Assembly: GCA_026693065.1 (NCBI GenBank)
Contig: JAPLNA010000206.1
Location: 1-62,494, forward strand
DNA length: 62,494 nt
Direction: 5' to 3'
Origin: Planctomycetota bacterium
GTDB taxonomy: Bacteria; Planctomycetota; Phycisphaerae; SM23-33
A program made the translations under genes and the position numbers. The notes below the pieces were generated by a model. The model was not told the DNA's origin. It was given only the letters and a program-made list of their open reading frames with translations, and searched no databases. Each line of letters opens with the position of its first letter. Position 1 is the stretch's first letter. Shown here piece by piece: positions 3-39,137 of this stretch.

Positions 3-122
3 CAGGCGGCGGACCTGCCGGCGGGGTTCGAGCCGACGTGCCTGGTGGCGATCGGCCATCCGGTCGGACAGCCGCCGGCCCCGCGGCGAAAGGCTATCGA
101 GCACATTGTGGAGTACAGGTGA
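3..122 (+). CDS. 3' end of a nitroreductase-like gene (partial, runs off the left edge)
   Basis: Frame 3 reads ...DLPAGFEPTCLVAIGHPVGQPPAPRRKAIEHIVEYR then TGA at 120-122. The LVAIGHP-type C-terminus is typical of the nitroreductase family. Only 39 residues are visible. Confidence 0.35.
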   Translation, partial: QAADLPAGFEPTCLVAIGHPVGQPPAPRRKAIEHIVEYR

Positions 123-126
123 GGCT

Positions 127-537
127 ATGACGGAACAAGAAACGTTCGAGAAACTCCTGCCCCTGCTCCGCGAGGTCACCGGCGCCCGGGCCGAGCAGGT
201 CACCATGGCCAGCAACCTCATGGACGACCTGGGGGCCGAGTCCATCGACCTGCTCGACCTCAGCTTCCTGATCGAGGAGGCCTTCGGCATCACGATCGAG
301 GCCGACGAGTTTGAGCGGCAGGCGACGGAGCAAATCCCCGACGGGCAATACGAACGCGACGGGCTCCTGACGGCCGAGGCGCTCGAGGAGCTCAAGAAGG
401 CCCTGCCCGAAGTGCCCGCGGAGAAGTTCCGCCCGGGGCTCAAGAAGATCGAGGTCCCGTCGGTGCTGAACGTGGGGGTGTTCGTGCATCTCATCCAGCG
501 CAAGGTGGCGCAGAAACAGGAGGCGGTCGATGCTTGA
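127..537 (+). CDS. Acyl carrier protein with an internal ~45-residue insertion
   Basis: ATG at 127 is preceded by AGGTGAGG. The motif DDLGAESIDLLDLSFLIEEAFGI matches the ACP phosphopantetheine-Ser helix II region. The product is 136 aa versus ~78 for a canonical ACP. The stop overlaps the next start. Confidence 0.8.
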   Translation: MTEQETFEKLLPLLREVTGARAEQVTMASNLMDDLGAESIDLLDLSFLIEEAFGITIEADEFERQATEQIPDGQYERDGLLTAEALEELKKALPEVPAEKFRPGLKKIEVPSVLNVGVFVHLIQRKVAQKQEAVDA

Positions 538-1264
538 GGGCAAGACGGCATTCGTGACGGGCGGCAGCGGAGCGGTCGGGTCGGCCATCGTGCGGGTGCT
601 GGCGCGCGAAGGGGCGCGGGTGGCGTTTTCGTTCCACTCGCACGGTGAGCGGGCCTCAGCCCTGGAGGCCCAGTGCCGGGCCGACGGGCGGCTGGTGAGG
701 GCGTATCCGCTGGACGTGCTGGACGCCAAGGCGTGTCAGTCGACCGCCAAGGCCGTCGAGGACGAGGTCGGGCCCGTGGACGTTCTGGTCAACAACGCCG
801 GCGTCACGCAGGTGATGCCCTTCGCGATGATCGAGGAGAAGGACTGGGACCAGATGATGGACGTGAACGTGAAGGGGATGTTCCTGGTGACGAAGGCGTT
901 CGCCCGCGGGATGATCCGTCGCAGGAGCGGGGGCATCATTAACATGGGGTCGCGGGCGGGCATGCGGGTGCTCGATGTGCCCGTGCACTACGCGGCGGCC
1001 AAGAGCGCGGTGACGGGGTTCACGCTCTCCCTGGCCCGGGAGCTGGGGCGGTACAACATCCGCGTCAACGCCGTCGTGCCCGGCATGCTGACCGGCGGGG
1101 TCAGCGACAACGTGCCGCCCAAGCAACGCGACAAGTACAACGAGTTCTGCTGCCTTTCCCGGGCGGGCGAGCCGGCGGAGGTGGCCGAACTGGTGGCCTT
1201 CCTGGCCAGCGACCGAGCCGGCTACGTCAACGCCCAGTCGCTCTTCGTGGACGGGGGCATCTGA
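530..1264 (+). CDS. Short-chain dehydrogenase/reductase, 3-oxoacyl-ACP reductase (FabG)-like
   Basis: TGGSGAVGSAI Rossmann motif, NNAGV, and the YAAAK catalytic Tyr-x3-Lys. Overlaps the ACP stop by 8 nt and the next start in a TGATG junction. Confidence 0.9.
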   Translation: MLEGKTAFVTGGSGAVGSAIVRVLAREGARVAFSFHSHGERASALEAQCRADGRLVRAYPLDVLDAKACQSTAKAVEDEVGPVDVLVNNAGVTQVMPFAMIEEKDWDQMMDVNVKGMFLVTKAFARGMIRRRSGGIINMGSRAGMRVLDVPVHYAAAKSAVTGFTLSLARELGRYNIRVNAVVPGMLTGGVSDNVPPKQRDKYNEFCCLSRAGEPAEVAELVAFLASDRAGYVNAQSLFVDGGI

Positions 1265-1725
1265 TGAAGTTCCGCATGGTCGACAGGATCCTCTCCTGGC
1301 AGGCGCGCCAACGCATCGCAGGCGTCAAGGCCGTCTCCTTCGAGGAGTACAGCCTGAAGAGCCCCTGGGGCGCCCCGCCGGCCCTGCCCGAAAGCCTCGT
1401 CATGGAAAGTCTCTTCCAACTGGGCAACTGGCTCATCGTGCTGTCCTCCGACTTCACGCGGATGGGCCTGCTCGTCCGCCTCGAGCGGGTCGAGTTCCAC
1501 ACTCCCCTGCGGCCGGGGGAGAGTCTCCGCATGGACGTCGAGGTCGTCAGCTTCCGGGACGACGGCGTGGCCTTCCACGGCGAGGCCTCCGCGGGCGGGC
1601 GGCTCGTCGCCGCCGGGCGGGGTTGCCTGGCCCGGCCGGTGGCCCTGGAAGACTATTGCAGCCCGGCGGACCTGCGGGTGTTGTTCTCGGAACTCCACAG
1701 GCCCCTCGCCGAAGGAGGGGCCTAG
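1264..1725 (+). CDS. Hotdog-fold protein, FabZ/FabA-like, without the canonical catalytic His
   Basis: FRMVDRIL...GVKAVSFEE...ALPESLVMESLFQ aligns by eye to FabZ FLLVDRV...KNVS.NE..F.GHFP...PGVL.iEAmaQ. The Glu position is kept, but GHFP is replaced by SPWG. Confidence 0.6.
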   Translation: MKFRMVDRILSWQARQRIAGVKAVSFEEYSLKSPWGAPPALPESLVMESLFQLGNWLIVLSSDFTRMGLLVRLERVEFHTPLRPGESLRMDVEVVSFRDDGVAFHGEASAGGRLVAAGRGCLARPVALEDYCSPADLRVLFSELHRPLAEGGA

Positions 1726-1727
1726 CC

Positions 1728-3137
1728 ATGGCGCGGCTGGACGAACGGGACTACACCTACTTCACCACCGTCCGCGGCATGTGCCGCCGCTGCCGCCAGG
1801 TCGTGCCCGCGCGGGTGTTCTTCCGGGGCGCCCAGGTCTGGCAGCAGAGCCTGTGCCCGACGTGCGAGAACCCCCCGGCCCTGATCGCCGCGGACAAGGA
1901 CTGGTATCTCAAGTCGCTGCTCCAGCCGATGCCCGACCGTTCGCCGCTGGCGGCCTCGCACGCCCCGGCGCGGGGGTGTCCGCACGATTGCGGCCCGTGC
2001 GCGTTCCACGCCTCGCCCTGCCAGTTGCCCGTGCTGTCGGTCACCAACGCGTGCGAGCTTCGGTGCCCCATCTGCTTCACCTACAACCGGGCCGACCGCA
2101 TCTACCACATGCCCGTCGAGGAGATGCGCCGGACCGTGGACTGGATCGTCGAGGCTTCCGGGCGCGTGGATCTCATCAACGTCACCGGGGGCGAGCCGAC
2201 GTTGCACCCGCGGATCCTGGAGATCCTCGACTGCGGCCGCCGCCCGGAGATCGGGCGGGTGACGATGAACTCCAACGGGCTGCGCCTCGCCCAAGACAAG
2301 GCCCTCTGCCGCGAACTGGCCGACCGCAACGTGTATGTGATCCTCTCGTTCAACACGTTCGACGCGGACGTGAGCCGGCGGCTGCACGGGCAGGACGTGG
2401 TGGCGGCGAAGCGAAGGGCGATCGACAACCTGACGGCCGCCGGAGTGCGGATGACGCTTCTGAACGTGATGGTTCGCGGGGCCAACGAGGACGCCGTCGG
2501 CGGGCTCTGGACGCTGATGCGGGACAACGAGAACATCCTGAGCCTGACCGTGCAGACGATGACGTACACCGGCCAGGGGGGCGGTCGGTTCGGCCGGGCG
2601 GAGCACATCCCCGTCGACGAGGCCGCCCGCATCGTCTGCCGCCAGACCGGCGGGGAGTTGGAGTTCGACGACTTCATCACGAGGCCCTCGGCCCACCCGC
2701 TGTGCTACCTGATCTGCTACGCCCTGAAGACGGAGGCGGGCATGCTGCCCTTCACGCGGTTTTCCGATCGTGGACGGCTGGGGGGCTTGATCGCCGAGTC
2801 CTACTTGGTCAGGCCCGTGGCGGGGCAGGAGTTCTTCACCGACGCGGTCAACCGGCTGTACGCCGACGGGCGCGACGGGCCGTTGCGGGCGCTGCGGGCG
2901 CTGGTGGAGCGGCTCTATCCGCCCGGGCAGGCCCTGGGGGCGTTCGACCGCCAGCGGACCGCCGAGTCCGCCGTCCGCACCGTCTACCTCCACGCCCACA
3001 TGGACGAAGACACGTTCGACTGTTCGCGTGCGATGATGTGCCCGGACCTGGTGCCAGCCGAGCCGGGGCGGCTCGTGCCCGCCTGCACGTACAACCTTTT
3101 CTACCGAATGCAGGATGAGCGATTCCATGTTGAGTGA
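1728..3137 (+). CDS. Radical SAM protein with N-terminal CxxC...CxxC zinc-ribbon/rubredoxin-like module (Tes / GDGT-MAS-like architecture)
   Basis: CRRC...CPTC, then CPHDCGPC, then the radical SAM triad CELRCPIC (Cx3Cx2C), a GGEPTLHP SAM-binding motif, and a Cys-containing C-terminus (FDCSRAMMCPD...LVPAC). The ATG lies 2 nt after the upstream stop. Confidence 0.85.
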   Translation: MARLDERDYTYFTTVRGMCRRCRQVVPARVFFRGAQVWQQSLCPTCENPPALIAADKDWYLKSLLQPMPDRSPLAASHAPARGCPHDCGPCAFHASPCQLPVLSVTNACELRCPICFTYNRADRIYHMPVEEMRRTVDWIVEASGRVDLINVTGGEPTLHPRILEILDCGRRPEIGRVTMNSNGLRLAQDKALCRELADRNVYVILSFNTFDADVSRRLHGQDVVAAKRRAIDNLTAAGVRMTLLNVMVRGANEDAVGGLWTLMRDNENILSLTVQTMTYTGQGGGRFGRAEHIPVDEAARIVCRQTGGELEFDDFITRPSAHPLCYLICYALKTEAGMLPFTRFSDRGRLGGLIAESYLVRPVAGQEFFTDAVNRLYADGRDGPLRALRALVERLYPPGQALGAFDRQRTAESAVRTVYLHAHMDEDTFDCSRAMMCPDLVPAEPGRLVPACTYNLFYRMQDERFHVE

Positions 3138-3693
3138 CGACGACCGCCGCCGGATCAAGAGCGAGAAACGGGCCTTCCGCGACTGGTGGGCCGGCGACCG
3201 CCGCGAGCCTTTCGTTCTCCCGCGCCGCGAGAACTACGGCGTCTGCGCCGTCATCCTGCCGGGCCCGCTGGCGAACCTCGCCCTGGGCCTGCGGTACGTC
3301 GCGATGCTCGTCATCGGCAGGATGCTGACCTCCTGGGTCCGCGTGAGGCTCTACCGGCTGATGGGCGTTCGGATCGGCCGGGGAGTTTACATCGCCCCCG
3401 GAGTATTCCTCGACGCGTTCTATCCGCGGCTGATCGAGCTTGAGGACGGCTGTTTCCTGGGCATCGGCTGCCGGCTGCTGGCGCACGAGTACACGACGGC
3501 GGCCTTCCGCGTCGGCCGCGTGCGAATCGGCAAGGGCTCGGTCATCGGGGGCTGGTCGATCGTTCGCAGCGGCGTGACGGTCGGTCGGGGCGTCACGACC
3601 GGGCTGGGCAGCGTGGTCGTCGCCGACGTGCCCGACGGGCTGACCGTCGGCGGCGTGCCCGCCAAACCCCTCAAGGGCAGGGAGTATGCCTGA
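3115..3693 (+). CDS. Left-handed beta-helix (hexapeptide repeat) acyl/acetyltransferase with N-terminal membrane segment
   Basis: Hexapeptide repeats IGRGVYIAPGVFL, IGKGSVIGGWSIVRSGVTVGRGVTTGLGSVV and VGGVPAKPL. Hydrophobic stretch VCAVILPGPLANLALGLRYVAMLVIG. The start is uncertain (3115 or 3127) and overlaps the upstream gene. Confidence 0.75.
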   Translation: MSDSMLSDDDRRRIKSEKRAFRDWWAGDRREPFVLPRRENYGVCAVILPGPLANLALGLRYVAMLVIGRMLTSWVRVRLYRLMGVRIGRGVYIAPGVFLDAFYPRLIELEDGCFLGIGCRLLAHEYTTAAFRVGRVRIGKGSVIGGWSIVRSGVTVGRGVTTGLGSVVVADVPDGLTVGGVPAKPLKGREYA

Positions 3694-4709
3694 TGGGCTT
3701 TCTGGCCAACTACGTGCGGAACCTCGCGAGCCTGGCGGCCGGGCGAACGCCCCGGCGGCCGCTCCTGTTCTCCTATTACCTCACCCACCGCTGTCCGCTG
3801 GCGTGCCGCTATTGCAGCGACGGGCAGGGGCGGCCCTTCAAGGAGGATCTCGTGGAGGAACTCTCCACCGGCCAGGCCCGCGAGCTGATCGACCTGCTGC
3901 GCCCCGACAGCGACACGCTGGACATCACCGGCGGCGAGCCGATGTGCCGGGGCGATCTGGAAGAACTGCTCTCGCACGCCCGGCGGGTGGGCTTCCGCAC
4001 GGTGCTGAACACCAAGGGCGCCGGCCTGCCGCAACGCCCGGACCTCATGCGTTTGTCCGACGTGCTGGTCCTGAGCGTCGACTCGCTGGATCGGGCCCGC
4101 CTGGCGGGGATCCTGGGCGGCCCCCCGCACGCCGCCCACGACGTGCTGGAGGCCCTGCACTGGGCCCTCGCCAACCGCGGGCGATACAAGAGCCAACTGG
4201 TCCTGTCCGCCGTCGCGATGGCCGACAACCTCGACGACGTCTCCGACGTCCTGCGGCTGGCCGTCAGTCATAAGCTGATGTTCCAGGTCTCCCCACACAT
4301 CGTCGGCACGGCGGTGCACCCGGGGCTGATCGGCAACGAGCGATTCGTCGCCCTGATGGACGAGGCCATCGCCGCCAAGGCCGCCGGCGCCGGCGTGCTG
4401 GGCGTGTTGCCCTATCTCCGCGGCCTGCGGGACGGGCGCGACTACACCTGCCACCCGCTGCTCATGCCCACCATCCGCCCCGACGGCGCGGTGAACCTGC
4501 CCTGCCTGGAACGCCCCCGCGAACGCGTGAGCGTCAAGGACGCCGGCGGCTATCGGCGGACACTCACGCGCGCGAGGCTGGCGCACGCCCGGACCTGCGA
4601 AGGGCGCGGGAATTGTCGTATCTTCTGCCACATGGCCCTGTCGTTGCTGCAGCGGCGGCCGCTGGCCGCCCTGCGGGAACTGGCGAGCTGGAGGACCACA
4701 CCATGCTGA
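3693..4709 (+). CDS. Radical SAM protein (~338 aa) with Cys-rich C-terminal auxiliary-cluster-like region
   Basis: CPLACRYC (Cx3Cx2C), GGEPM SAM motif, and C-terminal YTCHP...PDGAVNLPC...TCEGRGNCRIFC. TGATG overlap with the upstream stop. Confidence 0.85.
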   Translation: MGFLANYVRNLASLAAGRTPRRPLLFSYYLTHRCPLACRYCSDGQGRPFKEDLVEELSTGQARELIDLLRPDSDTLDITGGEPMCRGDLEELLSHARRVGFRTVLNTKGAGLPQRPDLMRLSDVLVLSVDSLDRARLAGILGGPPHAAHDVLEALHWALANRGRYKSQLVLSAVAMADNLDDVSDVLRLAVSHKLMFQVSPHIVGTAVHPGLIGNERFVALMDEAIAAKAAGAGVLGVLPYLRGLRDGRDYTCHPLLMPTIRPDGAVNLPCLERPRERVSVKDAGGYRRTLTRARLAHARTCEGRGNCRIFCHMALSLLQRRPLAALRELASWRTTPC

Positions 4710-5731
4710 CCGCGCTGCAAAAGGAACTGCACTACCAGTACCGGTGCCTGCGGCTCTCGCGGAACCTGCTGCTCAAGCGGATGCTCCACTGCAACCTGCA
4801 GGTGACCTATCGGTGCAACTTCGAGTGCCAGATCTGCGACTTCTGGAAGCCCGAGTATCAGAAGACGCACGAGTTGTCCCTCGACGACATCCGCCTGATC
4901 GGGGCCAGGCTCAACCGCCTGGGCACGCTGATCATCTCCCTGGCCGGCGGCGAGCCGCTGATCCGCGAGGACCTGCCCGACGTCATCGCCGTCCTGAACA
5001 AGGCCAATCATTTCCCCATTCTGATCACCAACGGCTGGTACGTGGACGACGCTCTGGCCAAGGCGATCCTGCGGGCGGGGTTGCAGGAGATCTCGGTGTC
5101 GGTGGACTACGCCGACCCGGCCCGGCACGACGCCCAGCGGGGGCGACAGGGGGCGTGGGACCGCGCGGTGAAGGCGCTGGAGCTGCTGCACAAGAACCGG
5201 CCCGACAAACGCAACCGCGTCCACATGATCAGCGTCCTGATGGACGACAACCTCGAGGACGTCGAGCCGCTGATCCTGCTGTCGCGCCAGATCGGCGTGA
5301 CGTACATGGTGAACCTCTACTCCTGGAACCGCGGGACGAAGAACCCCCGCCTGCCCGGCGCCCGCGTCACCGAACACCTGCTGGCCCTGAAACGCAAGTA
5401 CCCGGAGTTCATCACGCTCACCAGCTACCTCGAGCAGTTCGACAACGCCATCGCCGTCGGCGGGATCGGCGACTGCCAGACCGGGCGGCTGCTGATGAAC
5501 ATCAACAACCACGGCCAGGTAGCCCGCTGCACCGAGACGCTCGACGAACCGGTGGGCAATATCCTGACCGACGACGTCAAGCTCCTGCACCGGCGGCTGC
5601 TGGAGGTGCAGCGGACGAAGTCCTGCGCCCAGTGCTGGACGAGCTGCCGGGGCTTCGCCGAGTGCATGCACAAGCCGCCGCGGTGGCGCCAATTCCGCGA
5701 GTTCTTCATCTCCGTGAGGCCCCGCGCATGA
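4703..5731 (+). CDS. Radical SAM protein (~342 aa) with SPASM/twitch-like C-terminus
   Basis: VTYRCNFECQIC (Cx3Cx2C), AGGEPL, and C-terminal GDCQTG...HGQVARC...KSCAQCWTSCRGFAEC. The ATG at 4703 overlaps the upstream TGA (ATGCTGA). Confidence 0.85.
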   Translation: MLTALQKELHYQYRCLRLSRNLLLKRMLHCNLQVTYRCNFECQICDFWKPEYQKTHELSLDDIRLIGARLNRLGTLIISLAGGEPLIREDLPDVIAVLNKANHFPILITNGWYVDDALAKAILRAGLQEISVSVDYADPARHDAQRGRQGAWDRAVKALELLHKNRPDKRNRVHMISVLMDDNLEDVEPLILLSRQIGVTYMVNLYSWNRGTKNPRLPGARVTEHLLALKRKYPEFITLTSYLEQFDNAIAVGGIGDCQTGRLLMNINNHGQVARCTETLDEPVGNILTDDVKLLHRRLLEVQRTKSCAQCWTSCRGFAECMHKPPRWRQFREFFISVRPRA

Positions 5732-7053
5732 AGACCCTGGGCATGACGCATTCCGTCTGCGGCCGGTGCCGGCAGGTGATACCCGCCAAGGACGGGCGGG
5801 AAAAAACCTTCGTCCACGGCGACGTCGAGCAGTACCTCCGCGCCCAGCGGTTCGTCAAGCCCGCGTGGGCGCCGCTCGAATTCGCCGGCCAGGCCTCCAA
5901 GCCCTGCCCCGAAGGCTGCGGGATGTGCTCCCGGCACGAGCAGCACCTGTGCATGCCGATCGTCGAGATCACCGCCCGCTGCGACCTGGACTGCCCCGTC
6001 TGCCTGGCCTCCGCCGGGCGGGATTGGGACATGTCGCTCGATGAATTCCGCCGCCTGCTCGACGGGCTGATCCGCGCCGAGCGGCAGGTCGATATCCTTA
6101 CCCTCTCGGGCGGCGAGCCCCTGGTGCACCCGCGGATCCTCGAGTTCCTGGACGAACTGGCCCGCCGCCCCGCGATCGTCCGCGCGAGCGTCTCGACCAA
6201 CGGGCTGTCGCTGCTGCGGAATCCGCAACTCCTGCCCGCCCTGGCGGCCCGGAACGCCGTCGTGTCGCTTCAGTTCGACGGCTTCGACGACGGGGTGTAC
6301 CGAACGCTCCGCGGCCGCGACCTGCTGGCGCAGAAACTCCGCATCCTGGACCTTCTGGCCGAATCGGAGGTGACCACGTCGCTGACGGTGACGCTGGCCG
6401 GCGGGGTGAACGAGCCACAGCTCGGGCCGATCCTCGACTACGTCTTCTCGCACCGGCACGTGGTAAGTCTGATGATCCAGCCGGTGGCGTTCGCCGGGCG
6501 GGCCCAGGGCATGCCCGGACGCGAGGATCGCCTGACGATCCCCGACGTGATCGGCCTGCTGGGCGGCACGGGGAAGGTGGCGACGGAGGACTTCGCCCCC
6601 CTGCCCTGCAGCCATCCGCTGTGCTTCTCGCTGGCGTACTACCTCATGCTCGACGGGGGCGGCAGGGCCCCCGTCAACCGCCTGGTGCAGGCCGACGGGC
6701 TGATGGACTCGCTGAGCAACCGGACCGTCTTCGGGCTCGACGAGGAGGAGCACGAGCGGCTCAAGGACATGGTGTACGACTTATGGAGCGGCCCGGCGGG
6801 CACGGCCCCGGATGCCCAGGCCGTCCTGGACACGCTGCGAAACATCCTGGGCGAGATGAGCGGCGCGTGTTTCGACGCCCGTCAGGCCTTCACCGTCGCC
6901 CAGCGACGGATCAAGTCGGTTTTCATCCACGCCTTCCAGGACGCCGACACGTTCGACCTGGCCCGCGTCCGCCGCTGCTGCAACGCCTATCCGCAACCCG
7001 ACGGCCGACTCGTGCCCGCCTGCGTGCACAACGTGATGGGAGGCCGGCCATGA
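5728..7053 (+). CDS. Radical SAM protein, paralog of 1728-3137, with a truncated N-terminal Cys module
   Basis: CGRC, CPEGCGMC, radical SAM triad CDLDCPVC, GGEPLVHPRILEFLDEL (compare GGEPTLHPRILEILD in the paralog), and C-terminal FDLARVRRCCNAYPQPDGRLVPAC. ATGA overlap with the upstream stop. Confidence 0.85.
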   Translation: MKTLGMTHSVCGRCRQVIPAKDGREKTFVHGDVEQYLRAQRFVKPAWAPLEFAGQASKPCPEGCGMCSRHEQHLCMPIVEITARCDLDCPVCLASAGRDWDMSLDEFRRLLDGLIRAERQVDILTLSGGEPLVHPRILEFLDELARRPAIVRASVSTNGLSLLRNPQLLPALAARNAVVSLQFDGFDDGVYRTLRGRDLLAQKLRILDLLAESEVTTSLTVTLAGGVNEPQLGPILDYVFSHRHVVSLMIQPVAFAGRAQGMPGREDRLTIPDVIGLLGGTGKVATEDFAPLPCSHPLCFSLAYYLMLDGGGRAPVNRLVQADGLMDSLSNRTVFGLDEEEHERLKDMVYDLWSGPAGTAPDAQAVLDTLRNILGEMSGACFDARQAFTVAQRRIKSVFIHAFQDADTFDLARVRRCCNAYPQPDGRLVPACVHNVMGGRP

Positions 7054-7679
7054 AGGACTTCCTCGCCCGCGTCATCCGCCGCCATGGCTCGCTGATGGTC
7101 AACGTGTTCCTGGTGGTCGCGCTGGGGCGGTACGCGGCCGTGAAGGCGTGGGAGGCCTGGCAGGCGGGGGCGTTCGACTTCGTCGAGGCGGCCTTCGCCG
7201 TCAACAACGTCGTGATGCTGACGTTGATCCTCATCCGCCGCAGGCACGTCGCGATCGACCGCGGGGTCTTCCACCAGGCCGTCGCGCTCGTGGCGTTCTT
7301 CTCGGGCATCGCGTTCTTCAAGCACCCCACCCCCTGCCCACCCGCCCTGCCCGCGGGGTTCATGATCGCCGCGATGGCCCTGGGCGCCCTGTCGCTGCTG
7401 AACCTGGGGCGGAGCTTCGGCATCCTCATCGCCGTCCGCCAGGTCAAGACGCACGGCCTCTACCGCCTCGTCCGCCACCCGATGTACCTGACGGAAATCC
7501 TCTGGCGTATCGGCTACGTCGCGGGCAACCTGTACTGGCCCAACGTGCTGATCTTCCTGGCCTCGTCGGGCTGCTACGTCTACCGGGCGATCCTGGAAGA
7601 ACGATTCCTGGCCCGGGACCCGGAATACCGAGAATACATGCAGAGAGTCCGATACCGTTTTGTCCCAGGCGTTTTCTGA
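7050..7679 (+). CDS. Integral-membrane methyltransferase of the ICMT / phospholipid methyltransferase (PEMT) family
   Basis: Multiple hydrophobic helices plus GLYRLVRHPMYL...ILEERFL, the signature region of isoprenylcysteine carboxyl / PEMT-type methyltransferases. ATGA overlap with the upstream stop. Confidence 0.7.
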   Translation: MKDFLARVIRRHGSLMVNVFLVVALGRYAAVKAWEAWQAGAFDFVEAAFAVNNVVMLTLILIRRRHVAIDRGVFHQAVALVAFFSGIAFFKHPTPCPPALPAGFMIAAMALGALSLLNLGRSFGILIAVRQVKTHGLYRLVRHPMYLTEILWRIGYVAGNLYWPNVLIFLASSGCYVYRAILEERFLARDPEYREYMQRVRYRFVPGVF

Positions 7680-7690
7680 GGAACCTGCCC

Positions 7691-9169
7691 ATGCCCCTCT
7701 GGCCGCGCCGAACCTATCTGGATCACAACGCCTCGACGCCCCTGGCCCCCCAGGTCCGCCGGGCGATGGCGGCCTGCCTGAAGAATACGCACGGCAACCC
7801 CTCCTCCCTGCACATCGCCGGACGCTCCGCACGCGGGGCGGTCGAACGGGCCCGCCGTTCCGTGGCGGCCCTGCTGGGCTGCCAGAGCGAGGACCTCTAC
7901 TTCACCTCCGGCGGCACAGAGGCCAACAACGCGGTGATCAAGGGCGTCTGGTCGGCGGCGGGGGGCGGGCACGTCGTCACCACGCGGATCGAGCACGACT
8001 CGGTCCTGGGCGCCTGCGGGCAGGTGGAGAAACTGGGCGGGCGAGTGACCTACGTGCCCGCCGGCGCCGACGGGCGGGTGAACCCCCGCGCCCTCGCCGA
8101 CGCGATCCGCCCCGACACCGTGCTCGTGTCCGTCATGCACGCCAACAACGAGACCGGCGCGATCCAGCCCGTCGGGGAGATCGCCGCCCTCGCTCGCCAG
8201 GCCGGCGTCCCCTTCCACACCGACGCCGTGCAGACGTTCGGCAAGATTCCCACGCGGGTGGACGATCTGGGCTGCGAGTTCCTGACGCTGACGGCCCACA
8301 AGATCAACGGGCCCAAGGGGGCGGGCGCCTTGTACTGGCGGGGCAACGCCCGGTGGACGCCGCTGATCGCCGGCGGCGACCAGGAGCGGCGGATGCGAAC
8401 CGGGACCGAGGCCGTGCACCAGATCGTCGGGTTAGGCGCGGCCGCCGACCTGGCCGCGCGAGGGATGGACGGCCAACACCCTCGCCTGGCGGCGCTGCGA
8501 AAGATGATGATCGACGGCATCGGTCGTCTCTACCCCTCTGCCCGCATCAACGAGGCCCCCGAGGGCTGGCAGATGCCCGGCTCCGTCAATGCGACCTTTC
8601 CGGGCAAGAGCGGGCTGAGCATCCTGGCCGGGCTGGACTGCCACCAGGTGGCCGTGTCGATCGGATCGGCCTGCACCGCCGACCGGATCGAGCCCTCCCA
8701 CGTCCTGCTGGGCATGGGGCTCTCCGAGGCCGACGCCCTCTCCACCGTGCGGGTCAGCATGGGCGCGACGACGGTAGCCGCCGACGTGAAGTACTTCCTC
8801 TGGGCCCTCCAGCGGGTGCTTCGCGGCGATCCCGAGGGGCTGGCCTGGCTGCCGCCCGAGCACCTGACGGCCGAGCGGATCGCCGGGGCGTTCCTGATCG
8901 ACCTGCGCCTGCGATACGAGCGGATGATCGCCCCGGGGGTTCCGGGGGCGAAGCTCTGGTCGCACATCGGCATCGAGAAACGGTTCCGGGAGATTCCCCG
9001 CGACAGGGAGGTGATCCTGATGTGCACGACGGGGATTTTCTCCTTCGAGGCCGGCTATCGCCTCGCCGACGCGGGGCACCCCCGGGTGCGAGTGGTGTAT
9101 GGCGGGTACGAGGCCTGGAAGGCCCTCTATCCGGATCTGCTGGAACGCCTCCGGAGCGGCCCGGACTAA
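7691..9169 (+). CDS. Cysteine desulfurase (NifS/IscS class) fused to a C-terminal rhodanese-like domain
   Basis: YLDHNASTP, GNPSSLH, FTSGGTEANN, PLP-Lys context LTAHKINGPKG, persulfide Cys SIGSAC. The C-terminal ~120 aa carry VILMCTTGIFS (rhodanese-type Cys loop) and GGYEAW. Confidence 0.85.
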   Translation: MPLWPRRTYLDHNASTPLAPQVRRAMAACLKNTHGNPSSLHIAGRSARGAVERARRSVAALLGCQSEDLYFTSGGTEANNAVIKGVWSAAGGGHVVTTRIEHDSVLGACGQVEKLGGRVTYVPAGADGRVNPRALADAIRPDTVLVSVMHANNETGAIQPVGEIAALARQAGVPFHTDAVQTFGKIPTRVDDLGCEFLTLTAHKINGPKGAGALYWRGNARWTPLIAGGDQERRMRTGTEAVHQIVGLGAAADLAARGMDGQHPRLAALRKMMIDGIGRLYPSARINEAPEGWQMPGSVNATFPGKSGLSILAGLDCHQVAVSIGSACTADRIEPSHVLLGMGLSEADALSTVRVSMGATTVAADVKYFLWALQRVLRGDPEGLAWLPPEHLTAERIAGAFLIDLRLRYERMIAPGVPGAKLWSHIGIEKRFREIPRDREVILMCTTGIFSFEAGYRLADAGHPRVRVVYGGYEAWKALYPDLLERLRSGPD

Positions 9170-9193
9170 CCCGCCGCCGGGCCGGCCTGGAGC

Positions 9194-9655
9194 ATGGGAG
9201 ACGCGGCTATGAAACGTGTATGCGAGTTGTACATCCGGCACGCCGGCTGGATCGGGGCGGGCTTCTGCGCCGTGCCCACCGCGGCCTGGTTCGCCGTCCT
9301 GCTGCTGACGATCCCCTTCCGCGAGGTCTACCTCCTGCGCCTCGGGCTGTGCCTGCTGGTGGGCTCTCCGGTGGCGGCGTTTCTGAACCGCTACGGCGTG
9401 AACGCCTGGCTGGGCAAGCACCGCGGCCCAGCGGGCCCGGCCACCGTGCTGGACGGCGTGCTGATCGGCGCGGGGATTGGAATCGGCTCGACCCTGCTTC
9501 CTCCGTTGTCGGCCCTGATCTGCACCCATCACCTGGAAGAGGCCAAGACGTTCATCATCGCCTGCTACCTCGCCTTTACCCTGGCCGGCGCCCTCATGGG
9601 GGCCGCCCTGGCGGCGATCGGACGGCAATACGTCCCTCGCGCCCTGCCCGATTGA
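9194..9655 (+). CDS. Small hydrophobic membrane protein (about 4 predicted TM helices), function unknown
   Basis: ORF begins 24 nt after the desulfurase stop on the same strand. Hydrophobic stretches AGFCAVPTAAWFAVLLL, LGLCLLVGSPVAAF, GVLIGAGIGIGSTLL and IIACYLAFTLAGALMGAALAAI. Confidence 0.5.
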   Translation: MGDAAMKRVCELYIRHAGWIGAGFCAVPTAAWFAVLLLTIPFREVYLLRLGLCLLVGSPVAAFLNRYGVNAWLGKHRGPAGPATVLDGVLIGAGIGIGSTLLPPLSALICTHHLEEAKTFIIACYLAFTLAGALMGAALAAIGRQYVPRALPD

Positions 9656-9779
9656 CAACCCCCTGCCAAGCCCCCGCGAGTCAGACAGGCAGGCCATCGG
9701 GGCGCTCCCGCCGCGTGAAGGGCTGACTCCCGGCGTGCCGGGACTTCCTTGCTCTGGTTTTCGCCCTTCGGGCGAAGAC

Positions 9780-9854
<75 letters not shown>

Positions 9855-10184
9855 TGACGAAGAAGATTATCGCCGCCCCGGCGGGCGGAAGCAAGGACGG
9901 AGTGCGCCGGCAATGCCGCCCAATGCCGCGCCCGGGCGGGTGGGAACCGGTACGGGAAAAGGCCCGGAATCGCCCCGAAAAATGGCCGTTTTCGAGGCCC
10001 GGGAGGGCCTTGAGACTGGAAAACAAGCCCTCGGTGAAACACCCGAGGGGGGTAGGGAGAAAAATAGTCGAAAAAAACAGTGTTTTTTGTTTGCCCCGCG
10101 GGCGGGTGTGGTGTAGGACATGCGCAGTGGCCGAGGCATCGGCCGGGTACATATGGGTCATTCGTGATGAAAGGAAGCATGACA

Positions 10185-10493
10185 ATGGCAAAGAAACCGT
10201 TGACGAAGGGACAGATCGTAGCCGCTATCGCCGAGGCGACGGGGCTGACCAAGAAGCAGGTAGGCTGCTGCTTCGCGGCGCTGGCCGACGTGATCAAGAA
10301 GCAGGTCGGCAAGAACGGGCCGGGCGTCATCGCCGTGGCCGGGCTGATGAAGATCACCGTCCAGCACAAGCCGGCCGTCAAGGCTCGCAAGGGCATCAAC
10401 CCCTTCACGAAGGAAGAGGTGATGTTCAAGGCCAAGCCCGCTCGCAACGTCGTCAAGGTCCGCGCCCTCAAGGCCCTCAAGGACATGGTCTGA
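10185..10493 (+). CDS. hup: HU/IHF-family nucleoid-associated DNA-binding protein
   Basis: MAKKPLTKGQIVAAIAEATGLTKKQV...VAGLMKITVQHKPAVKARKGINPFTKEEVMFKAKPARNVVKVRALKALK matches the HU fold pattern (beta-arm with RxGxNP). GAAAGGAAG lies upstream of the ATG. Confidence 0.85.
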   Translation: MAKKPLTKGQIVAAIAEATGLTKKQVGCCFAALADVIKKQVGKNGPGVIAVAGLMKITVQHKPAVKARKGINPFTKEEVMFKAKPARNVVKVRALKALKDMV

Positions 10494-10529
10494 CCGTTCC
10501 GGGCTGACGAAAACCAGTAATCCGCATGA

Positions 10530-10562
10530 GCCGGCGATCCTCGCGATCGCCGGCTTCTTTTT
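10530..10562 (+). terminator. Rho-independent terminator after the HU gene
   Basis: Perfect 10-bp stem GCCGGCGATC / GATCGCCGGC with a 5-nt loop, followed by TTCTTTTT. Confidence 0.75.
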
Positions 10563-10812
10563 CGATCGCCCCCCCCAAAAGAAAGAAACGGAAAGACAAG
10601 TCGCGCGGGAATCGGGCGTACCGTTGTTTTGGCGTGTGTGGGCCGGGGAGGGGGTGCAGGGGAGCCGCCGCCGGGTCCCCCGCCAGCGGCAACCGTGTGC
10701 CCCCGTACGGAGTCCCGTTTTTCTGGGCGGTTTCCCGTTTCCCCTTGGCTACCGGCTCCTTTGGTTGCGGCCGAGACCGAAGGCTCGAGGCAGCGCCGGG
10801 GTCTTTGGGGAA

Positions 10813-10944
10813 CTAGTGATGGCGATGATGGTCGCTGCCGCAGCCGGCCAGGAACAGCCCCAGGGCCGCCAGGGTCAGCAGGAGCGGAAGAGCCGGAAGG
10901 ATCTTGCCTGTCCAACGCAACAGTGTCGCCTTGATGTGGGTCAT
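10813..10944 (-). CDS. 43-aa putative micro-lipoprotein with a His-rich 9-residue mature part
   Basis: Hand translation gives MTHIKATLLRWTGKILPALPLLLTLAALGLFLAGCGSDHHRHH*. GGAG lies 9 nt upstream of the ATG and there is an LAGC lipobox. The ORF is below the size cutoff of the supplied track. Confidence 0.4.
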   Translation of the reverse strand: MTHIKATLLRWTGKILPALPLLLTLAALGLFLAGCGSDHHRHH

Positions 10945-11031
10945 GGTTTGGATCTCCAAAAGTGTACGCCACGGCAGGCCGCCATAGGCCCGCTTCTCTT
11001 TGCTTCCATTGTAGCCGCCGGGCCCGCGAGT

Positions 11032-11550
11032 CTATAGCTTGCCAAGAATAATCCCGTGCGTCGGCGGGCTGGGCCAGAACGTCACCCAACTGTTGATCTT
11101 GACCTTGCGGGTGTCGGTGGGCTTGAAGGACAGCAACGAGACCACCAGCGGCACGCCGGCGTCGACGACGATGGTGTTGTGGGCGTCGTTCTCGACGACC
11201 TTGCCGTTGACGGGCGTGATCGTCTCGACCGTCCGCCGGCAGTAACTGATCCGCGGGCTCTTGCCCGCCGGGTACAGCTCGAACGTCGTCTCATCCCGCG
11301 TGCCGCTGTCCAGGGCGGCGGTGGCCACGTGGATGATCACCTCCAGCTCGTCGTCCAGGTGGATTCGCTTCTGGAGCGTCTTGCGGTGGGTGTCCAGCAA
11401 GACGAAGTCGATGTACGTGCCCGGCCGGTTGATGTCGCCGGTGGCCGGGGGAATCCGCAGCGTAAACAACGGTCCCACGGGCCCGGCGTTGTCGATCGCC
11501 ATCAGTCGCCCGCGCACGGCATATTGGCTGTCCGTAAGCAGCTTGGCCAT
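11032..11550 (-). CDS. Hypothetical protein (172 aa)
   Basis: The ATG at 11550 is preceded by GGAG (gcGGAGaccgatcATG). Amino-acid composition is balanced, unlike the Arg/Pro-rich upstream extension of the track ORF. I recognise no motif. Confidence 0.5.
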   Translation of the reverse strand: MAKLLTDSQYAVRGRLMAIDNAGPVGPLFTLRIPPATGDINRPGTYIDFVLLDTHRKTLQKRIHLDDELEVIIHVATAALDSGTRDETTFELYPAGKSPRISYCRRTVETITPVNGKVVENDAHNTIVVDAGVPLVVSLLSFKPTDTRKVKINSWVTFWPSPPTHGIILGKL

Positions 11551-11901: not shown

Positions 11902-12120
11902 GCAAGCTGCCCGTGGTCTCCCGGCCGGAAGCTGGTACGCGCACTCGAACGGGCTGGGTTCGCCTTGGATCGACAACGGGGCAGCCACATGATCCTTTTC
12001 CGTGCGAATCCGCCGACCACACTCACCGTTCCGGACCACCGCGAGTTGGACCGTGGAACCCTACGCGCGATTCTTCGCCAAGCCGACATCACGCCGTCGC
12101 AACTCGACAGCCTGCTCTGA
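11898..12120 (+). pseudogene. hicA: hicA mRNA-interferase toxin gene carrying a 1-nt frameshift after codon 8
   Basis: The ATG frame gives MSKLPVVS, then nonsense. The +1 frame gives GRKLVRALERAGFALDRQRGSHMILFRANPPTTLTVPDHRELDRGTLRAILRQADITPSQLDSLL*, a full HicA. An extra C in TCTCCCGGCC (about 11920-11923) explains the shift. Confidence 0.7.
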
Positions 12121-12156: not shown

Positions 12157-13197
12157 ATGCCGCTGAGCGAACGAGAGAATACGATCCGGAACGCCACATT
12201 CCGGGGGCATGAATGGATCCCGCAGTGCGTGGCCCTGAACGGGGCGTACTGGGGCGAGCATCGCGAGGCGCTGGAGGAGGTGTGCCTGAGGCACCCGGTG
12301 CTGTTTCCGGGGTTCCGCAAGGGGCAGGTCAATTTCGACGCCCACGTCCGAACGCCCGAGCAGAAGCGAGTCACGGATATCTGGGGGTGCCGCTGGGCGT
12401 ACGACATCGACGGCTTCGACGGGCAGGTGATCGCCCACCCGCTGGAGGACTGGTCGGCGATGGAGAGCGGGGCGTGGCAGCCGCCGCAGGCCCCCCCGTT
12501 CACCCAGGCCGACCGAGACCGGCTCGCCGCCCAGCGCGCCGCCGGAGAACTCACCTACGCCTGGACCGATCACGGGTTCGTCTTCATGCGGCTGTTCTAC
12601 CTGCGGGGGTTCGAGAACTTCCTGATGGACGTGGCCACGGAGGACCCGCGGCTGGACGCGTTGATCGAGAAGGTGATCGGCTACTGGGAGCAGACGCTGT
12701 TGCCGCGGATCGAAGCCGGCGTGGACGTGGTCAACACCGCCGACGACCTGGGCACGCAGACGGCGAGCATCCTCGGGCCCAAGTACTTCCGCCGGTATCT
12801 GCTGCCGGCGTATCAGCGAATCTTCCAGCCGGCGCGGCGGAAGGGCTCGCTGGTGAAAATGCACCACGACGGGTACATCATGGACGTGATGGACGAACTG
12901 ATCGAGAGCGGGGTGAACATCGTCAACCCGCAGGATCTGGTCAACGGGATCGACGCCCTGGCCGCCCACGTGAAGGGGCGGGCGTGCATCTGCCTGGACG
13001 TCGACCGCCAGAGCGTGCTGCCCTTCGGCTCCCCGGGCGACGTCCGCGACCTCATTCGCGAGGAAGTGATGAAGCTGGGCTCCCCGGCCGGGGGGTTGGA
13101 GATGATCATCGGCGTCTACCCCCCTACCCCGCTGGCGAATGTCGAGGCGATGATGTCGGCGATGGAGGAGTACAGGACGTATTGGGTGGGGAGGTGA
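12157..13197 (+). CDS. Uroporphyrinogen decarboxylase (URO-D)/MtaA-like family protein, paralog 1
   Basis: TIM-barrel URO-D-like pattern shared with 21321-22292 and 27718-28770 (DDLG.Q, H..G......dEL.e.GvN, C-terminal EA...A.EEY). The metal-ligand position reads HHDG instead of HSCG. Confidence 0.7.
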   Translation: MPLSERENTIRNATFRGHEWIPQCVALNGAYWGEHREALEEVCLRHPVLFPGFRKGQVNFDAHVRTPEQKRVTDIWGCRWAYDIDGFDGQVIAHPLEDWSAMESGAWQPPQAPPFTQADRDRLAAQRAAGELTYAWTDHGFVFMRLFYLRGFENFLMDVATEDPRLDALIEKVIGYWEQTLLPRIEAGVDVVNTADDLGTQTASILGPKYFRRYLLPAYQRIFQPARRKGSLVKMHHDGYIMDVMDELIESGVNIVNPQDLVNGIDALAAHVKGRACICLDVDRQSVLPFGSPGDVRDLIREEVMKLGSPAGGLEMIIGVYPPTPLANVEAMMSAMEEYRTYWVGR

Positions 13198-22629: not shown

Positions 22630-24417
22630 ATGGCGATCCCGCGTAACGAATACCCGCGTCCGCAGTTCATACGGAAAGACTGGCTGTGCCTCAATGGCCC
22701 GTGGCAGTTCGAGATCGACGCCGGCGACACCGGGGCCGAGCGCGGGCTCCTCGATCGCGAACTCTCCGGGCGGATCACCGTGCCCTTCTGCCCCGAGAGC
22801 AGACTCTCGGGCGTCGAGTGCGTGGACTTCATGAACGCCGTCTGGTATCGCCGCACGGTCACGGTCCCCAAGGCCTGGGCCGGGCGGAAGGTGCTGCTGC
22901 ACTTCCAGGCCGTCGACTACGAGGCCACCGTCTGGGTGAACGGCCGCCGGGTGGGCGCCCATCGCGGGGGCTGGTGCGGGTTCACCTGCGACCTGGGCGG
23001 AGTGGTCGCCGCCGGCGAGAAGGCGACGATCGTCGTCCGCGCCCGCGACCCGAAGGGGCCCGGCAAGCCGGGAGGAAAGCAGACGCCGACGGCCTACCAC
23101 AGCAGCGGCTGCCTCTACACCCGAACGACGGGCATCTGGCAGACCGTGTGGATGGAACCGGTGAGCGAGGTCCATCTGAAGCGTCCGCGGATCACGCCCG
23201 ACCTGGCCGGCGGACGGTTCCGGCTCGTCCAGCCGATCACCAACAGCCGCCCGGGGACGAAACTCCGCGTGACGCTCAAGGACAACAAGGGCGTCGTCTG
23301 CCGCGCCCTCGCCGACGCCGACGCCGACTTCACGCCGACCCTCGACCTGCCCATCCCCAAGGCCCGCCGGCGGCTCTGGGGCCCGGAAGACCCGTTCCTC
23401 TACGACGTCGACATCGAACTGCTCGACGCCAAGGGCAAGACCATCGACCGGGCCTCCAGCTACGCCGGACTGCGAAGCGTCACCATCGACGGCCAGGCCG
23501 TCCGCCTCAACGGGCGGAGCGTCTTCCAGCGGCTGGTGCTGGACCAGGGGTATTACCCCGACGGCATCCTGACGGCCGCCAGCGACGCGGCGTTGCGCAA
23601 GGACATCGAGCTTTCGCTGGCGGCGGGGTTCAACGGCGCGAGACTGCACCAGAAGGTGTTCGAGGAACGCTTCCTGTACCACGCCGACCGGCTGGGGTAC
23701 CTCGTCTGGGGCGAGCTGGGCGACTGGGGGCTCGACCGGGACCAGCCCAAGGCCACCTACATCACCCAGTGGCTCGAGGTGGTCGCCCGCGACTACAACC
23801 ACCCGGCGATCGTGGGCTGGTGCCCGCTGAACGAGACGGCCCAGCCGATCCCCGACGGCGTCGAGGGGCTCGACGACCTGACGCACGGGCTGGTGCTGGC
23901 GACGAAGGCGATGGACCAGACGCGTCCGGTGCTGGACGCCTCGGGCTACAGCCATCGCGAGTGGAACCTGGACGTGTACGACAGCCACGACTACGACCAG
24001 AACCCCGCGACGTTCGCCGCTCGCCACGCGGGCCTGGCCGCGGGCGACCCGTTCGTCAACCCGGACAAGGAGCACGCCCCGTGGTCGCTGCCGTACGCGG
24101 GGCAACCGTACTTCGTCAGCGAGTTCGGCGGCACGTGGTGGCAGCCGGGCATGGCGGCCCACCGCGACAGCCACGCCCACGACGGCTCGTGGGGGTACGG
24201 CCAGGCCCCCCGCACCCTCGCGGAGTTCTACGCCCGCTTCCAGGGCCTGTGCGACGCCCTCCTGGACAATCCGCACATGTTCGGTTACTGCTACACCCAA
24301 CTGACCGACGTCTTCCAGGAACAGAACGGCATCTTCCTGTTCAATCGCGAGCGGAAGTTCGACCTCCGCAAACTCCACACCATCCAACGCCGCCCCGCGG
24401 CGGTGGAGAAGCGGTGA
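22630..24417 (+). CDS. Glycoside hydrolase family 2 (beta-galactosidase/glucuronidase/mannosidase-like)
   Basis: YPRPQF, WYRR...VLLHFQAVDYEATVWVNG..VG.HRGG, acid/base context GWCPLNE and nucleophile context YFVSEFGG. The start could be 22615 or 22630. Confidence 0.8.
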   Translation: MAIPRNEYPRPQFIRKDWLCLNGPWQFEIDAGDTGAERGLLDRELSGRITVPFCPESRLSGVECVDFMNAVWYRRTVTVPKAWAGRKVLLHFQAVDYEATVWVNGRRVGAHRGGWCGFTCDLGGVVAAGEKATIVVRARDPKGPGKPGGKQTPTAYHSSGCLYTRTTGIWQTVWMEPVSEVHLKRPRITPDLAGGRFRLVQPITNSRPGTKLRVTLKDNKGVVCRALADADADFTPTLDLPIPKARRRLWGPEDPFLYDVDIELLDAKGKTIDRASSYAGLRSVTIDGQAVRLNGRSVFQRLVLDQGYYPDGILTAASDAALRKDIELSLAAGFNGARLHQKVFEERFLYHADRLGYLVWGELGDWGLDRDQPKATYITQWLEVVARDYNHPAIVGWCPLNETAQPIPDGVEGLDDLTHGLVLATKAMDQTRPVLDASGYSHREWNLDVYDSHDYDQNPATFAARHAGLAAGDPFVNPDKEHAPWSLPYAGQPYFVSEFGGTWWQPGMAAHRDSHAHDGSWGYGQAPRTLAEFYARFQGLCDALLDNPHMFGYCYTQLTDVFQEQNGIFLFNRERKFDLRKLHTIQRRPAAVEKR

Positions 24418-24497
24418 GGGGAAGGAACCGGGAACGAGGAACTGGGAAGGAGAACTGGGAACTGGGACCGGAGGCGGTGTATGATGGTCGGTTGACC

Positions 24498-39123: not shown

Positions 39124-39137
39124 AAGGTGGCCTGACC

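Follow-up and report, generated by a model that had tools for sequence, protein, structure and literature searches.

A conserved bacterial operon that joins a type II fatty-acid/polyketide-like gene set to two Tes-family radical SAM enzymes, seen in a Planctomycetota contig

The archaeal enzyme GDGT-MAS joins lipid tails at inert sp3 carbons via a C-S(cluster) intermediate (PMC9433317). Crystallography placed its metals in a rubredoxin-type CX2C-X20-CX2H site, an N-terminal CX3CX2C motif with an additional His, the radical S-adenosylmethionine (SAM) motif CX3CX2C, and a C-terminal cluster (Lloyd et al., PMC9433317). Bacterial homologues of this GDGT-MAS/Tes family, whose function is unknown, were noted by Zeng et al. 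(PMC8941075) and Lloyd et al. (PMC9433317) without the gene context described here. As an earlier reading of the present DNA (the original prediction) had stated, Zeng et al. indeed proposed that they make membrane-spanning lipids (PMC8941075). In this study, we analysed a 62,494-nt stretch (the window) of contig JAPLNA010000206.1 from a Planctomycetota bacterium, and found that the genes at its start (127-9655) belong to a conserved operon that joins a type II fatty-acid synthase (FAS)/polyketide synthase (PKS)-like set, two Tes-family and two twitch-type radical SAM enzymes (here radical SAM A and D, and B and C, respectively), and a sulfur relay.

Radical SAM A and D are paralogues with 31% identity, both with an HMPTM zinc ribbon, matching Tes and TrsS. 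Each has a clear radical SAM domain (PF04055, E=9e-22 for A and E=7e-18 for D). Radical SAM A matches the GDGT-MAS structure 7TOL with E=4e-35, and the family profile of D matches it with E=1.4e-64, positions 7-460 falling onto residues 25-500 including the RCC...PxC motif. When an AlphaFold2 model of D (pLDDT 56) was searched with Foldseek, 7TOM/7TOL came out on top (7TOM E=1.4e-20, TM-score 0.59, 446 columns), and the next match followed at 1e-7. The metal-ligand motifs agree with these matches. The radical SAM motif reads C109-X3-C113-X2-C116 in A and C85-X3-C89-X2-C92 in D, and is preceded by an auxiliary CX3CX2C motif with His (C84-C88-C91 then H94 in A; C60-C64-C67 then H70 and H73 in D, invariant in the D alignment). 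The rubredoxin-type site is CX2C-X20-CX2C in A and CX2C...CPxH in all 11 aligned D homologues. Radical SAM D of the window has a 16-aa in-frame deletion near its N-terminus (5728-5800) relative to all 11 of these homologues, by which the CPxH half of the site is lost; this could be a genuine in-frame deletion or an assembly artefact. C-terminal Cys motifs are present in both A and D, and homology to the GDGT-MAS structure spans the full length. Thus, the original assignment of the two large radical SAM enzymes to the Tes/GDGT-MAS (MJ0619) family was upheld.

GDGT-MAS/Tes (MJ0619, MA_1486; 7TOL/7TOM; NF045702; IPR034474) is also the sole close match of A and D in the PDB, by structure or by sequence, and shares with them the full-length architecture, including the C-terminal Cys-rich domain and, apart from the deviations noted above, the rubredoxin-like N-terminus. 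However, identity is only about 25%, and the scores against the Tes model NF045702 (163 bits for A, 188 bits for D) stay below the equivalog cut-off of 450, at a third to under half of it. The match to the uncharacterised TrsS model is equally good (NF045646; A 175 bits, D 233 bits, cut-off 490). According to our alignment, A and D have a His where GDGT-MAS has the labile ligand Met439. They also differ from GDGT-MAS in coming as two paralogues per cluster, within a bacterial operon for an acyl carrier protein (ACP), ketosynthase (KS), ketoreductase (KR) and dehydratase. On these scores and alignments, A and D are classed as members of the GDGT-MAS/Tes superfamily but of a separate subfamily, not as Tes equivalogs. 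Given this gene context, in bacteria without isoprenoid ether lipids, their substrate is probably an acyl-ACP or a fatty-acyl lipid rather than an isoprenoid ether-lipid tail.

The original prediction described the block as lacking any ketosynthase and concluded that a pre-made acyl chain is modified rather than built. We scanned one genome per species with two peptide patterns and obtained 41 loci, onto which the window proteins and four upstream proteins of L002 (a Planctomycetaceae metagenome-assembled genome (MAG), the closest relative fetched) were mapped. All 25 related loci with enough upstream DNA have a FabZ-type dehydratase, a chain-length-factor (CLF)-like KS and a FabF-like KS ahead of the ACP gene, and in 24 of them a nitroreductase gene lies between the KS genes and ACP (the exception is L021). 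The gene string of these loci runs dehydratase, CLF, KS, an optional second KR, nitroreductase, ACP, KR, hotdog protein, radical SAM A. Two further contexts, reached via radical SAM D homologues (80% and 62% identical), encode, ahead of ACP, a FabA/ApeI-like dehydratase (150 aa), a KS-like protein confined to the N-terminal KS domain (about 380 aa) and a full KS (about 420 aa); no separate nitroreductase gene was called in these two.

The KS of the relatives is closest to FabF (1E5M, E=4e-95), and its Cys-His-His triad is readable in the sequence. In the partner protein, Glu takes the place of the Cys and neither His is present, which makes it the chain-length-factor-like, inactive subunit of a heterodimer-type pair. 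The HF...E motif of the upstream dehydratase is intact, and we classify this gene product as a true FabZ-type dehydratase with a predicted intact active site. An active KS beside a Cys-less partner was thus found in the 25 relatives, and of this region only the end of the nitroreductase gene is visible in the window. Its last 39 codons (...DLPAGFEPTCLVAIGHPVGQPPAPRRKAIEHIVEYR) end in IEHIVEYR, followed by a stop 4 nt 5' of the ACP ATG. This fragment is 69% identical (tblastn) to residues 162-200 of the 200-aa nitroreductase of L002, whose gene precedes ACP there and matches PF00881 with E=1e-34. It follows that the window opens inside the operon, which runs on upstream, and the block 127-9655 is the 3' two-thirds of one long operon, a conserved cluster of 15-16 genes. 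The source contig is 68,330 nt long, and the roughly 5.8 kb outside the window leaves room for the missing 3.3 kb. Taken together, the original expectation of an upstream boundary beyond the window was borne out by the nitroreductase fragment. The absence of a ketosynthase is a window-edge artefact, and the inference that a pre-made chain is merely tailored falls with it.

A discrete ACP with the phosphopantetheine Ser (DLGAES) and a FabG-like KR are encoded in the window, and a FabZ-like dehydratase upstream in relatives, as in type II systems. The ACP domain (PF00550, E=3.5e-8) covers residues 9-65 and is followed by a C-terminal extension of about 70 aa. Both the DLGA(D/E)S motif and an extension motif, DG.YT.EAL.ELR.A.PE.P, are conserved across phyla (26 loci). 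The extended ACP forms a family of its own, with 126 full-length representatives at E<=1e-10, nearly all of 125-160 aa. The FabG-like short-chain dehydrogenase/reductase (SDR) matches adh_short_C2 with E=4e-56 and scores 217 bits against the FabG model NF009466 (cut-off 222); its YxxxK motif is present.

The hotdog protein encoded next to the KR reaches 59 bits against the FabZ model, with a cut-off of 155. Alignment to 5BUX places a Pro at the site of the FabZ catalytic His, and none of 30 homologues has His there. The FabZ-like label given originally therefore holds for the family (Pfam and NCBIfam agree), but probably not for a dehydratase role; the catalytic His is absent and a true dehydratase is encoded upstream in relatives. 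The hotdog gene always lies directly 5' of the radical SAM A gene, and the two are fused in one frame in a Desulfobacterales chromosome (CP070746; L037:7534-9402), at a locus with masked N runs. This fusion is a Rosetta-stone hint that both proteins may cooperate. We infer that the histidine-less hotdog protein is a putative chain-binding or chain-presenting partner of radical SAM A, not a dehydratase.

With 26% identity, radical SAM B and C are distantly related paralogues, and their C-termini have a five-Cys layout in common. For B, the PF04055 match has E=1e-13, and the best sequence match in the PDB is 8WM2 (AbmM) with E=2.5e-6. Radical SAM C (PF04055, E=1.5e-22) is the most conserved protein of the cluster, with orthologues at least 69% identical across phyla and all five C-terminal Cys invariant. 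The Foldseek neighbours of its AlphaFold2 model (pLDDT 79) are SkfB, BlsE, DesII, SuiB and MoaA, indicating a generic twitch/SPASM fold and no specific function. Pfam SPASM and RRE domains were not found in either protein. A kinship of radical SAM C with the archaeal GDGT ring synthases, via its weak TIGR03961 match, is speculative.

Four further genes complete the block. The acyltransferase (PF00132, E=3e-9) has one N-terminal hydrophobic segment at residues 41-59 and weakly matches the NCBIfam models for heptaprenylglyceryl-phosphate O-acetyltransferase and the Pls/PosA terminal domain. The methyltransferase matches PEMT (E=1.3e-6) and ICMT (E=3e-5), has four transmembrane (TM) segments, and weakly resembles isoprenylcysteine O-methyltransferase, MddA and LmtA (NCBIfam). 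The NifS-rhodanese fusion matches Aminotran_5 (E=4e-69), Rhodanese (E=7e-7) and the NifS model (377 bits). In 15 of 15 homologues the pyridoxal-phosphate Lys, the SACTA Cys and the Cys of the rhodanese CxTGxxS motif are invariant, and the dedicated sulfur/Fe-S supplier of the original prediction is therefore present with all its catalytic residues. Variants of the cluster without this fusion have a stand-alone rhodanese-domain protein beside them, of 424 aa in one locus (L024:1748-3022) and of 450 aa in the contig that bears P0034. The last protein, with four TM segments, has no match in Pfam or NCBIfam. Its homologues are encoded inside the cluster in nine loci, including L002, and its gene is often the first of the cluster in relatives.

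Most of the 41 loci, which span 36% to 72% G+C, repeat these genes in the same order, an arrangement far beyond chance. The co-conservation, which the original prediction proposed to check across Planctomycetota, extends to other phyla. According to record titles, the cluster occurs in Planctomycetota (Planctomycetaceae, Pirellulales, Gemmataceae, Thermoguttaceae and Phycisphaerae) and in Victivallales. Among the latter are two MAGs (L032 and L033) assigned to Victivallis vadensis, a cultured species that seems to have the whole cluster. It was also found in Elusimicrobiota, Nitrospirota, Desulfobacterota and other deltaproteobacteria, Leptospiraceae and one Pseudomonadota MAG, and, via radical SAM C homologues, in Sumerlaeota, Riflebacteria and Wallbacteria. 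Comparison of the loci revealed an invariant module of dehydratase, CLF, KS, (second KR), nitroreductase, ACP, KR, hotdog protein, radical SAM A and radical SAM D, which stands without accessories in five loci. As accessories, the acyltransferase, radical SAM B and C, the methyltransferase, the NifS-rhodanese and the 4-TM protein often accompany this module, in varying positions. Another five loci have a second divergent radical SAM/SPASM gene and a second hexapeptide transferase downstream of the core, and some of these also a PigE-like class III aminotransferase and a DUF1571 protein. With these extra genes, some variants may include steps that involve an amine or a lipid carrier.

Besides GDGT-MAS, several described systems share parts of this gene set. 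Aryl polyene (APE) clusters carry genes for an aryl starter, LolA/MMPL export, and acyl- and glycosyltransferases. APE clusters and highly reducing type II PKSs (ishigamide Iga11/12, 6KXD) resemble our cluster in having a KS with an inactive CLF-like partner, a discrete ACP, a FabG-like KR and FabZ/ApeI-like dehydratases (PF22818, ApeI-like, was recorded on the upstream dehydratase of relatives). A canonical enoyl reductase is absent from these systems as from our cluster, and the cluster KS matches 6KXD with E=7e-60. However, this KS is nearer to housekeeping FabF (E=4e-95), and the four radical SAM enzymes, the nitroreductase, the extended ACP and the NifS-rhodanese are features of this cluster and not of APE clusters. 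Among the families common to the loci, we found no aryl-starter genes, no LolA/MMPL export genes and no APE-type glycosyl- or lysophospholipid acyltransferases; the aminotransferase and DUF1571 occur in few loci.

Extended FASII clusters of Kuenenia stuttgartiensis and Desulfotalea psychrophila were proposed for ladderane or polyunsaturated fatty acid synthesis (Rattray et al. 2009, PMC2649909). They likewise combine FAS genes, including Cys-less KS paralogues, with radical SAM and methyltransferase genes, and occur sporadically in anaerobes of several phyla (PMC2649909). In contrast to our cluster, they hold genes for phytoene-dehydrogenase-like, F390-synthetase-like, glycosyltransferase and B12 radical SAM proteins, and a Tes-like pair, a NifS-rhodanese and a hexapeptide transferase are absent from them (PMC2649909). 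The present cluster does not match the gene set of kuste3335-3352, kuste3603-3608 or kuste2802-2805, the anammox candidates. Cispentacin-type PKS-like machinery is another relative. The ACP, hotdog proteins and KS weakly resemble AmcB, AmcE and AmcF (NCBIfam), and some relatives of the cluster add a class III aminotransferase, but all scores are well under cut-off (e.g., AmcF 211 bits vs 325), our cluster has no adenylating loader, and radical SAM enzymes are foreign to the cispentacin pathway. The cluster also resembles LipA, BioB and AbmM in that the alkyl substrate would be carrier-bound or a small molecule, that auxiliary Fe-S clusters are involved and that sulfur has to be resupplied. Here, the likeness is that of the general twitch fold only (E about 1e-6; Foldseek rank 31 for radical SAM C), and LipA and BioB signatures were not found in the radical SAM enzymes of the cluster.

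No model in Pfam (2025) or NCBIfam (June 2026), which also provided the family assignments throughout, is specific to any protein of the cluster, and the source names of hundreds of homologues are generic. The original statement that no characterised pathway has this gene set agrees with these family models and source annotations, in which a curated or named equivalent was not found. As far as can be told from models, source names and general knowledge, the cluster is uncharacterised; coverage of the literature was limited, so an earlier characterisation is possible.

What does this cluster make? In our judgement it probably encodes a dedicated type II FAS/PKS-like line, and radical C-C (or C-S) chemistry would remodel the chain on its carrier before transfer to a membrane acceptor. 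In this scheme, KS-CLF, the FabG-like reductase and the dehydratase, possibly with the flavoprotein as a reductase or dehydrogenase, would build the chain on the extended ACP from malonyl units that primary metabolism supplies. The histidine-less hotdog protein would sequester the ACP-bound chain and present it to radical SAM A; this hand-over is suggested by the constant adjacency of the two genes and their fusion in one genome (L037). Radical SAM A and D would then abstract H from unactivated chain carbons and form C-C bonds (cross-link, cyclisation or branching) via an auxiliary Fe-S cluster, as GDGT-MAS does, and radical SAM B and C may add further radical steps. The membrane-anchored hexapeptide acyltransferase is a candidate for off-loading the thioester to a membrane acceptor, given its weak likeness to a lipid O-acetyltransferase and to the Pls/PosA terminal domain, which uses carrier thioesters. 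The ICMT/PEMT enzyme would methylate the product, and the NifS-rhodanese would give persulfide sulfur, either for the upkeep of about 10 Fe-S clusters or for incorporation into the product.

Several observations weigh against this assembly-line scheme. There is no KS in the window, and that of this organism is deduced from synteny, the cut nitroreductase gene and the DNA outside the window. One locus (L009) has the order A-D-B and no FAS genes in 8.5 kb upstream. The AlphaFold2 model of radical SAM D is of low confidence and was used for its top Foldseek match only. With scores far under the Tes cut-off, A and D form a distinct subfamily and might catalyse another reaction, such as methylation; MJ0619 itself was originally assigned as a methylase. 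A thioesterase, an exporter, a glycerolipid enzyme and an enoyl reductase of known type were not found in the cluster. The substrate could be a membrane lipid instead of acyl-ACP, and a product is not known for any member of the cluster.

Other explanations place the radical chemistry elsewhere. Sulfur insertion, by which the radical SAM set would put S into an ACP-bound chain in the manner of LipA, BioB or AbmM, with NifS-rhodanese as persulfide donor and the ICMT/MddA-like enzyme as S- or O-methyltransferase, would give a thio-lipid or a lipoate/biotin-like product; we consider it the main alternative, though an unlikely one. Desulfurase-rhodanese fusions are typical of persulfide relay to a metabolite, not of scaffold-based Fe-S assembly, and the fusion seen here has an invariant rhodanese active-site Cys. 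Rhodanese proteins recur beside the cluster even without NifS, as in L024 and the P0034 contig. The best PDB sequence match of radical SAM B is AbmM (8WM2), a twitch radical SAM enzyme that inserts sulfur, the methyltransferase has weak similarity to MddA, which S-methylates methanethiol, and the chemistry of GDGT-MAS itself includes a C-S(cluster) adduct. However, the AbmM and MddA matches are weak (E about 1e-6 and about 1e-4), the minimal module from dehydratase to radical SAM D occurs without NifS, methyltransferase and radical SAM B and C nearby, and four radical SAM enzymes with about 10 clusters alone justify a dedicated Fe-S sulfur supplier. A membrane-spanning or macrocyclic lipid is quite unlikely as the product. 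Here, the Tes paralogues would join the omega ends of two acyl chains, ACP-bound or in phospholipid, to diacids of the diabolic-acid type, as proposed for bacterial Tes homologues and for precursors of branched tetraether lipids (brGDGTs). This idea fits the Tes-family membership of A and D and the published proposal for their bacterial homologues (PMC8941075; PMC9433317). The two paralogues always occur together, and the hosts are mostly from anoxic sediment, peat and groundwater (record titles). A pyruvate-formate-lyase-like glycyl radical enzyme is also encoded in the window (22686-26642, + strand; Pfam matches at residues 710-1300), which fits an anaerobic host and is consistent with an oxygen-sensitive radical SAM pathway. 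Nevertheless, ordinary membrane fatty acids could be coupled tail to tail without a KS-CLF, ACP, KR and dehydratase dedicated to the task, and ether-forming and glycerolipid genes are not in the cluster. None of the 41 loci, which come from a scan with two peptide patterns only, belongs to the Acidobacteria that Zeng et al. highlighted.

That the ACP is loaded with a pre-made acyl chain for tailoring, without any chain building, is very improbable. No KS, acyltransferase of the AT type or acyl-ACP synthetase was found within 127-9655, but the window begins inside the operon, and dehydratase, CLF and KS stand before ACP in every relative with enough upstream DNA. Exceedingly improbable, in our view, is either a ladderane-type (anammox) lipid cluster or a peptide/cofactor maturase system. 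The former is suggested by one locus labelled Ca. Kuenenia stuttgartiensis (L017, FI88_62_9) and another from Brocadiia (L029). The G+C of L017 is 61.7%, against about 41% for Kuenenia, and no relative of its radical SAM D, a singleton, exceeds 64% identity. For these reasons the label is unreliable, and either the naming or the binning of the MAG contig is in doubt. Proposals for ladderane synthesis do involve extended FASII clusters that include radical SAM genes (PMC2649909), but those of Kuenenia hold a different gene set, and our cluster occurs in many non-anammox phyla. A reliable anammox member was not found, and we rejected the link. A maturase function is suggested by the SPASM/twitch-like folds of radical SAM B and C. 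We rejected this candidate (a ribosomally synthesized and post-translationally modified peptide or cofactor SPASM maturase) as well: there is no precursor-peptide gene and no Pfam SPASM or RRE domain, the C-terminal Cys number five in place of the seven-Cys SPASM motif, and the operon is centred on an ACP with a full FAS-like set.

The 11 + strand open reading frames (ORFs) between 127 and 9655 were confirmed by the ORF listing of the window, with all coordinates as first listed (Table 1). From ACP onward, the junctions are an 8-nt overlap, TGATG, a 2-nt gap, a 23-nt overlap, TGATG, ATGCTGA, ATGA, ATGA, and gaps of 11 and 24 nt, that is, overlaps of 8, 1, 23, 1, 7, 4 and 4 nt and gaps of 2, 11 and 24 nt. 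Gene content, order and translational coupling of the 11-gene block are therefore as originally described, and coordinates, junctions and Pfam/NCBIfam families all agree. A scan of the operon for promoters and terminators revealed no internal signals above shuffled expectation. A tRNA-Pro(TGG) gene convergent to the operon (9780-9854, - strand) marks its 3' end, and the operon ends at 9655. Beyond it lie a gene for an HU-family DNA-binding protein (10188-10493, +) and a strong terminator-like hairpin (10528-10556) with a 12-bp stem and a T tract. Two ORFs considered as a twelfth and thirteenth gene (9749-10507, +, and 9845-11089, -) were rejected; they have no homologues and a junk-like composition, and are shadows over the tRNA-Pro/HU region.

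Table 1. Genes at the start of the window, with the basis of each assignment (TM segments from hydropathy windows)
Feature	Position	Strand	Basis
Nitroreductase-family (FMN) gene, 3' end (last 39 codons + stop)	3..122	+	tblastn vs L002 nitroreductase gene
ACP, 136 aa	127..537	+	PF00550
FabG-like 3-oxoacyl-ACP reductase (SDR)	530..1264	+	adh_short_C2, NF009466
FabZ-fold hotdog protein without catalytic His	1264..1725	+	FabZ model, alignment to 5BUX
Radical SAM A, GDGT-MAS/Tes-family paralogue, 469 aa	1728..3137	+	PF04055, 7TOL match
Hexapeptide-repeat (left-handed beta-helix) acyltransferase	3115..3693	+	PF00132
Radical SAM B, twitch/SPASM-like, 338 aa	3693..4709	+	PF04055
Radical SAM C, twitch/SPASM-like, 342 aa	4703..5731	+	PF04055
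Radical SAM D, GDGT-MAS/Tes-family paralogue, 441 aa	5728..7053	+	PF04055, 7TOL profile match
Integral-membrane ICMT/PEMT-family methyltransferase, 4 TM	7050..7679	+	PEMT, ICMT models
NifS-type cysteine desulfurase with C-terminal rhodanese (fusion)	7691..9169	+	Aminotran_5, Rhodanese
4-TM membrane protein, no family	9194..9655	+	hydropathy, cluster homologues

Elsewhere in the window, a HicB-like antitoxin gene (PF15919; 11695-11901, +) is followed by a short HicA-toxin-like ORF (11965-12120, +), with a lower G+C of 62-65%; the pair is a probable toxin-antitoxin system. A URO-D-like protein (12157-13197, +), an MgtC-family protein (38592-39857, +) and a fused SecDF (41487-45194, -) are housekeeping functions with no evident link to the cluster.

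The role of bacterial Tes homologues has been an open question since 2022, and bears on the origin of the branched tetraether lipids that serve as palaeoclimate proxies. By setting two such homologues beside their own carrier protein and chain-building enzymes in a minimal module of 10-11 genes, the cluster makes this question directly testable. Should acyl-ACP prove to be the substrate, Tes-type sp3-sp3 coupling would be tied to fatty-acid/polyketide assembly lines for the first time. The furthest-reaching version of this idea, unlikely as it stands, is that bacterial Tes paralogues act on a dedicated ACP-tethered or freshly off-loaded acyl or polyketide chain and form C-C or C-S bonds between unactivated carbons, giving a new class of cyclised, cross-linked or membrane-spanning lipids in anaerobes of at least eight phyla. 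If true, such lipids would be a candidate source of orphan sedimentary lipids, for example brGDGT-type or sulfur-bearing alkyl skeletons.

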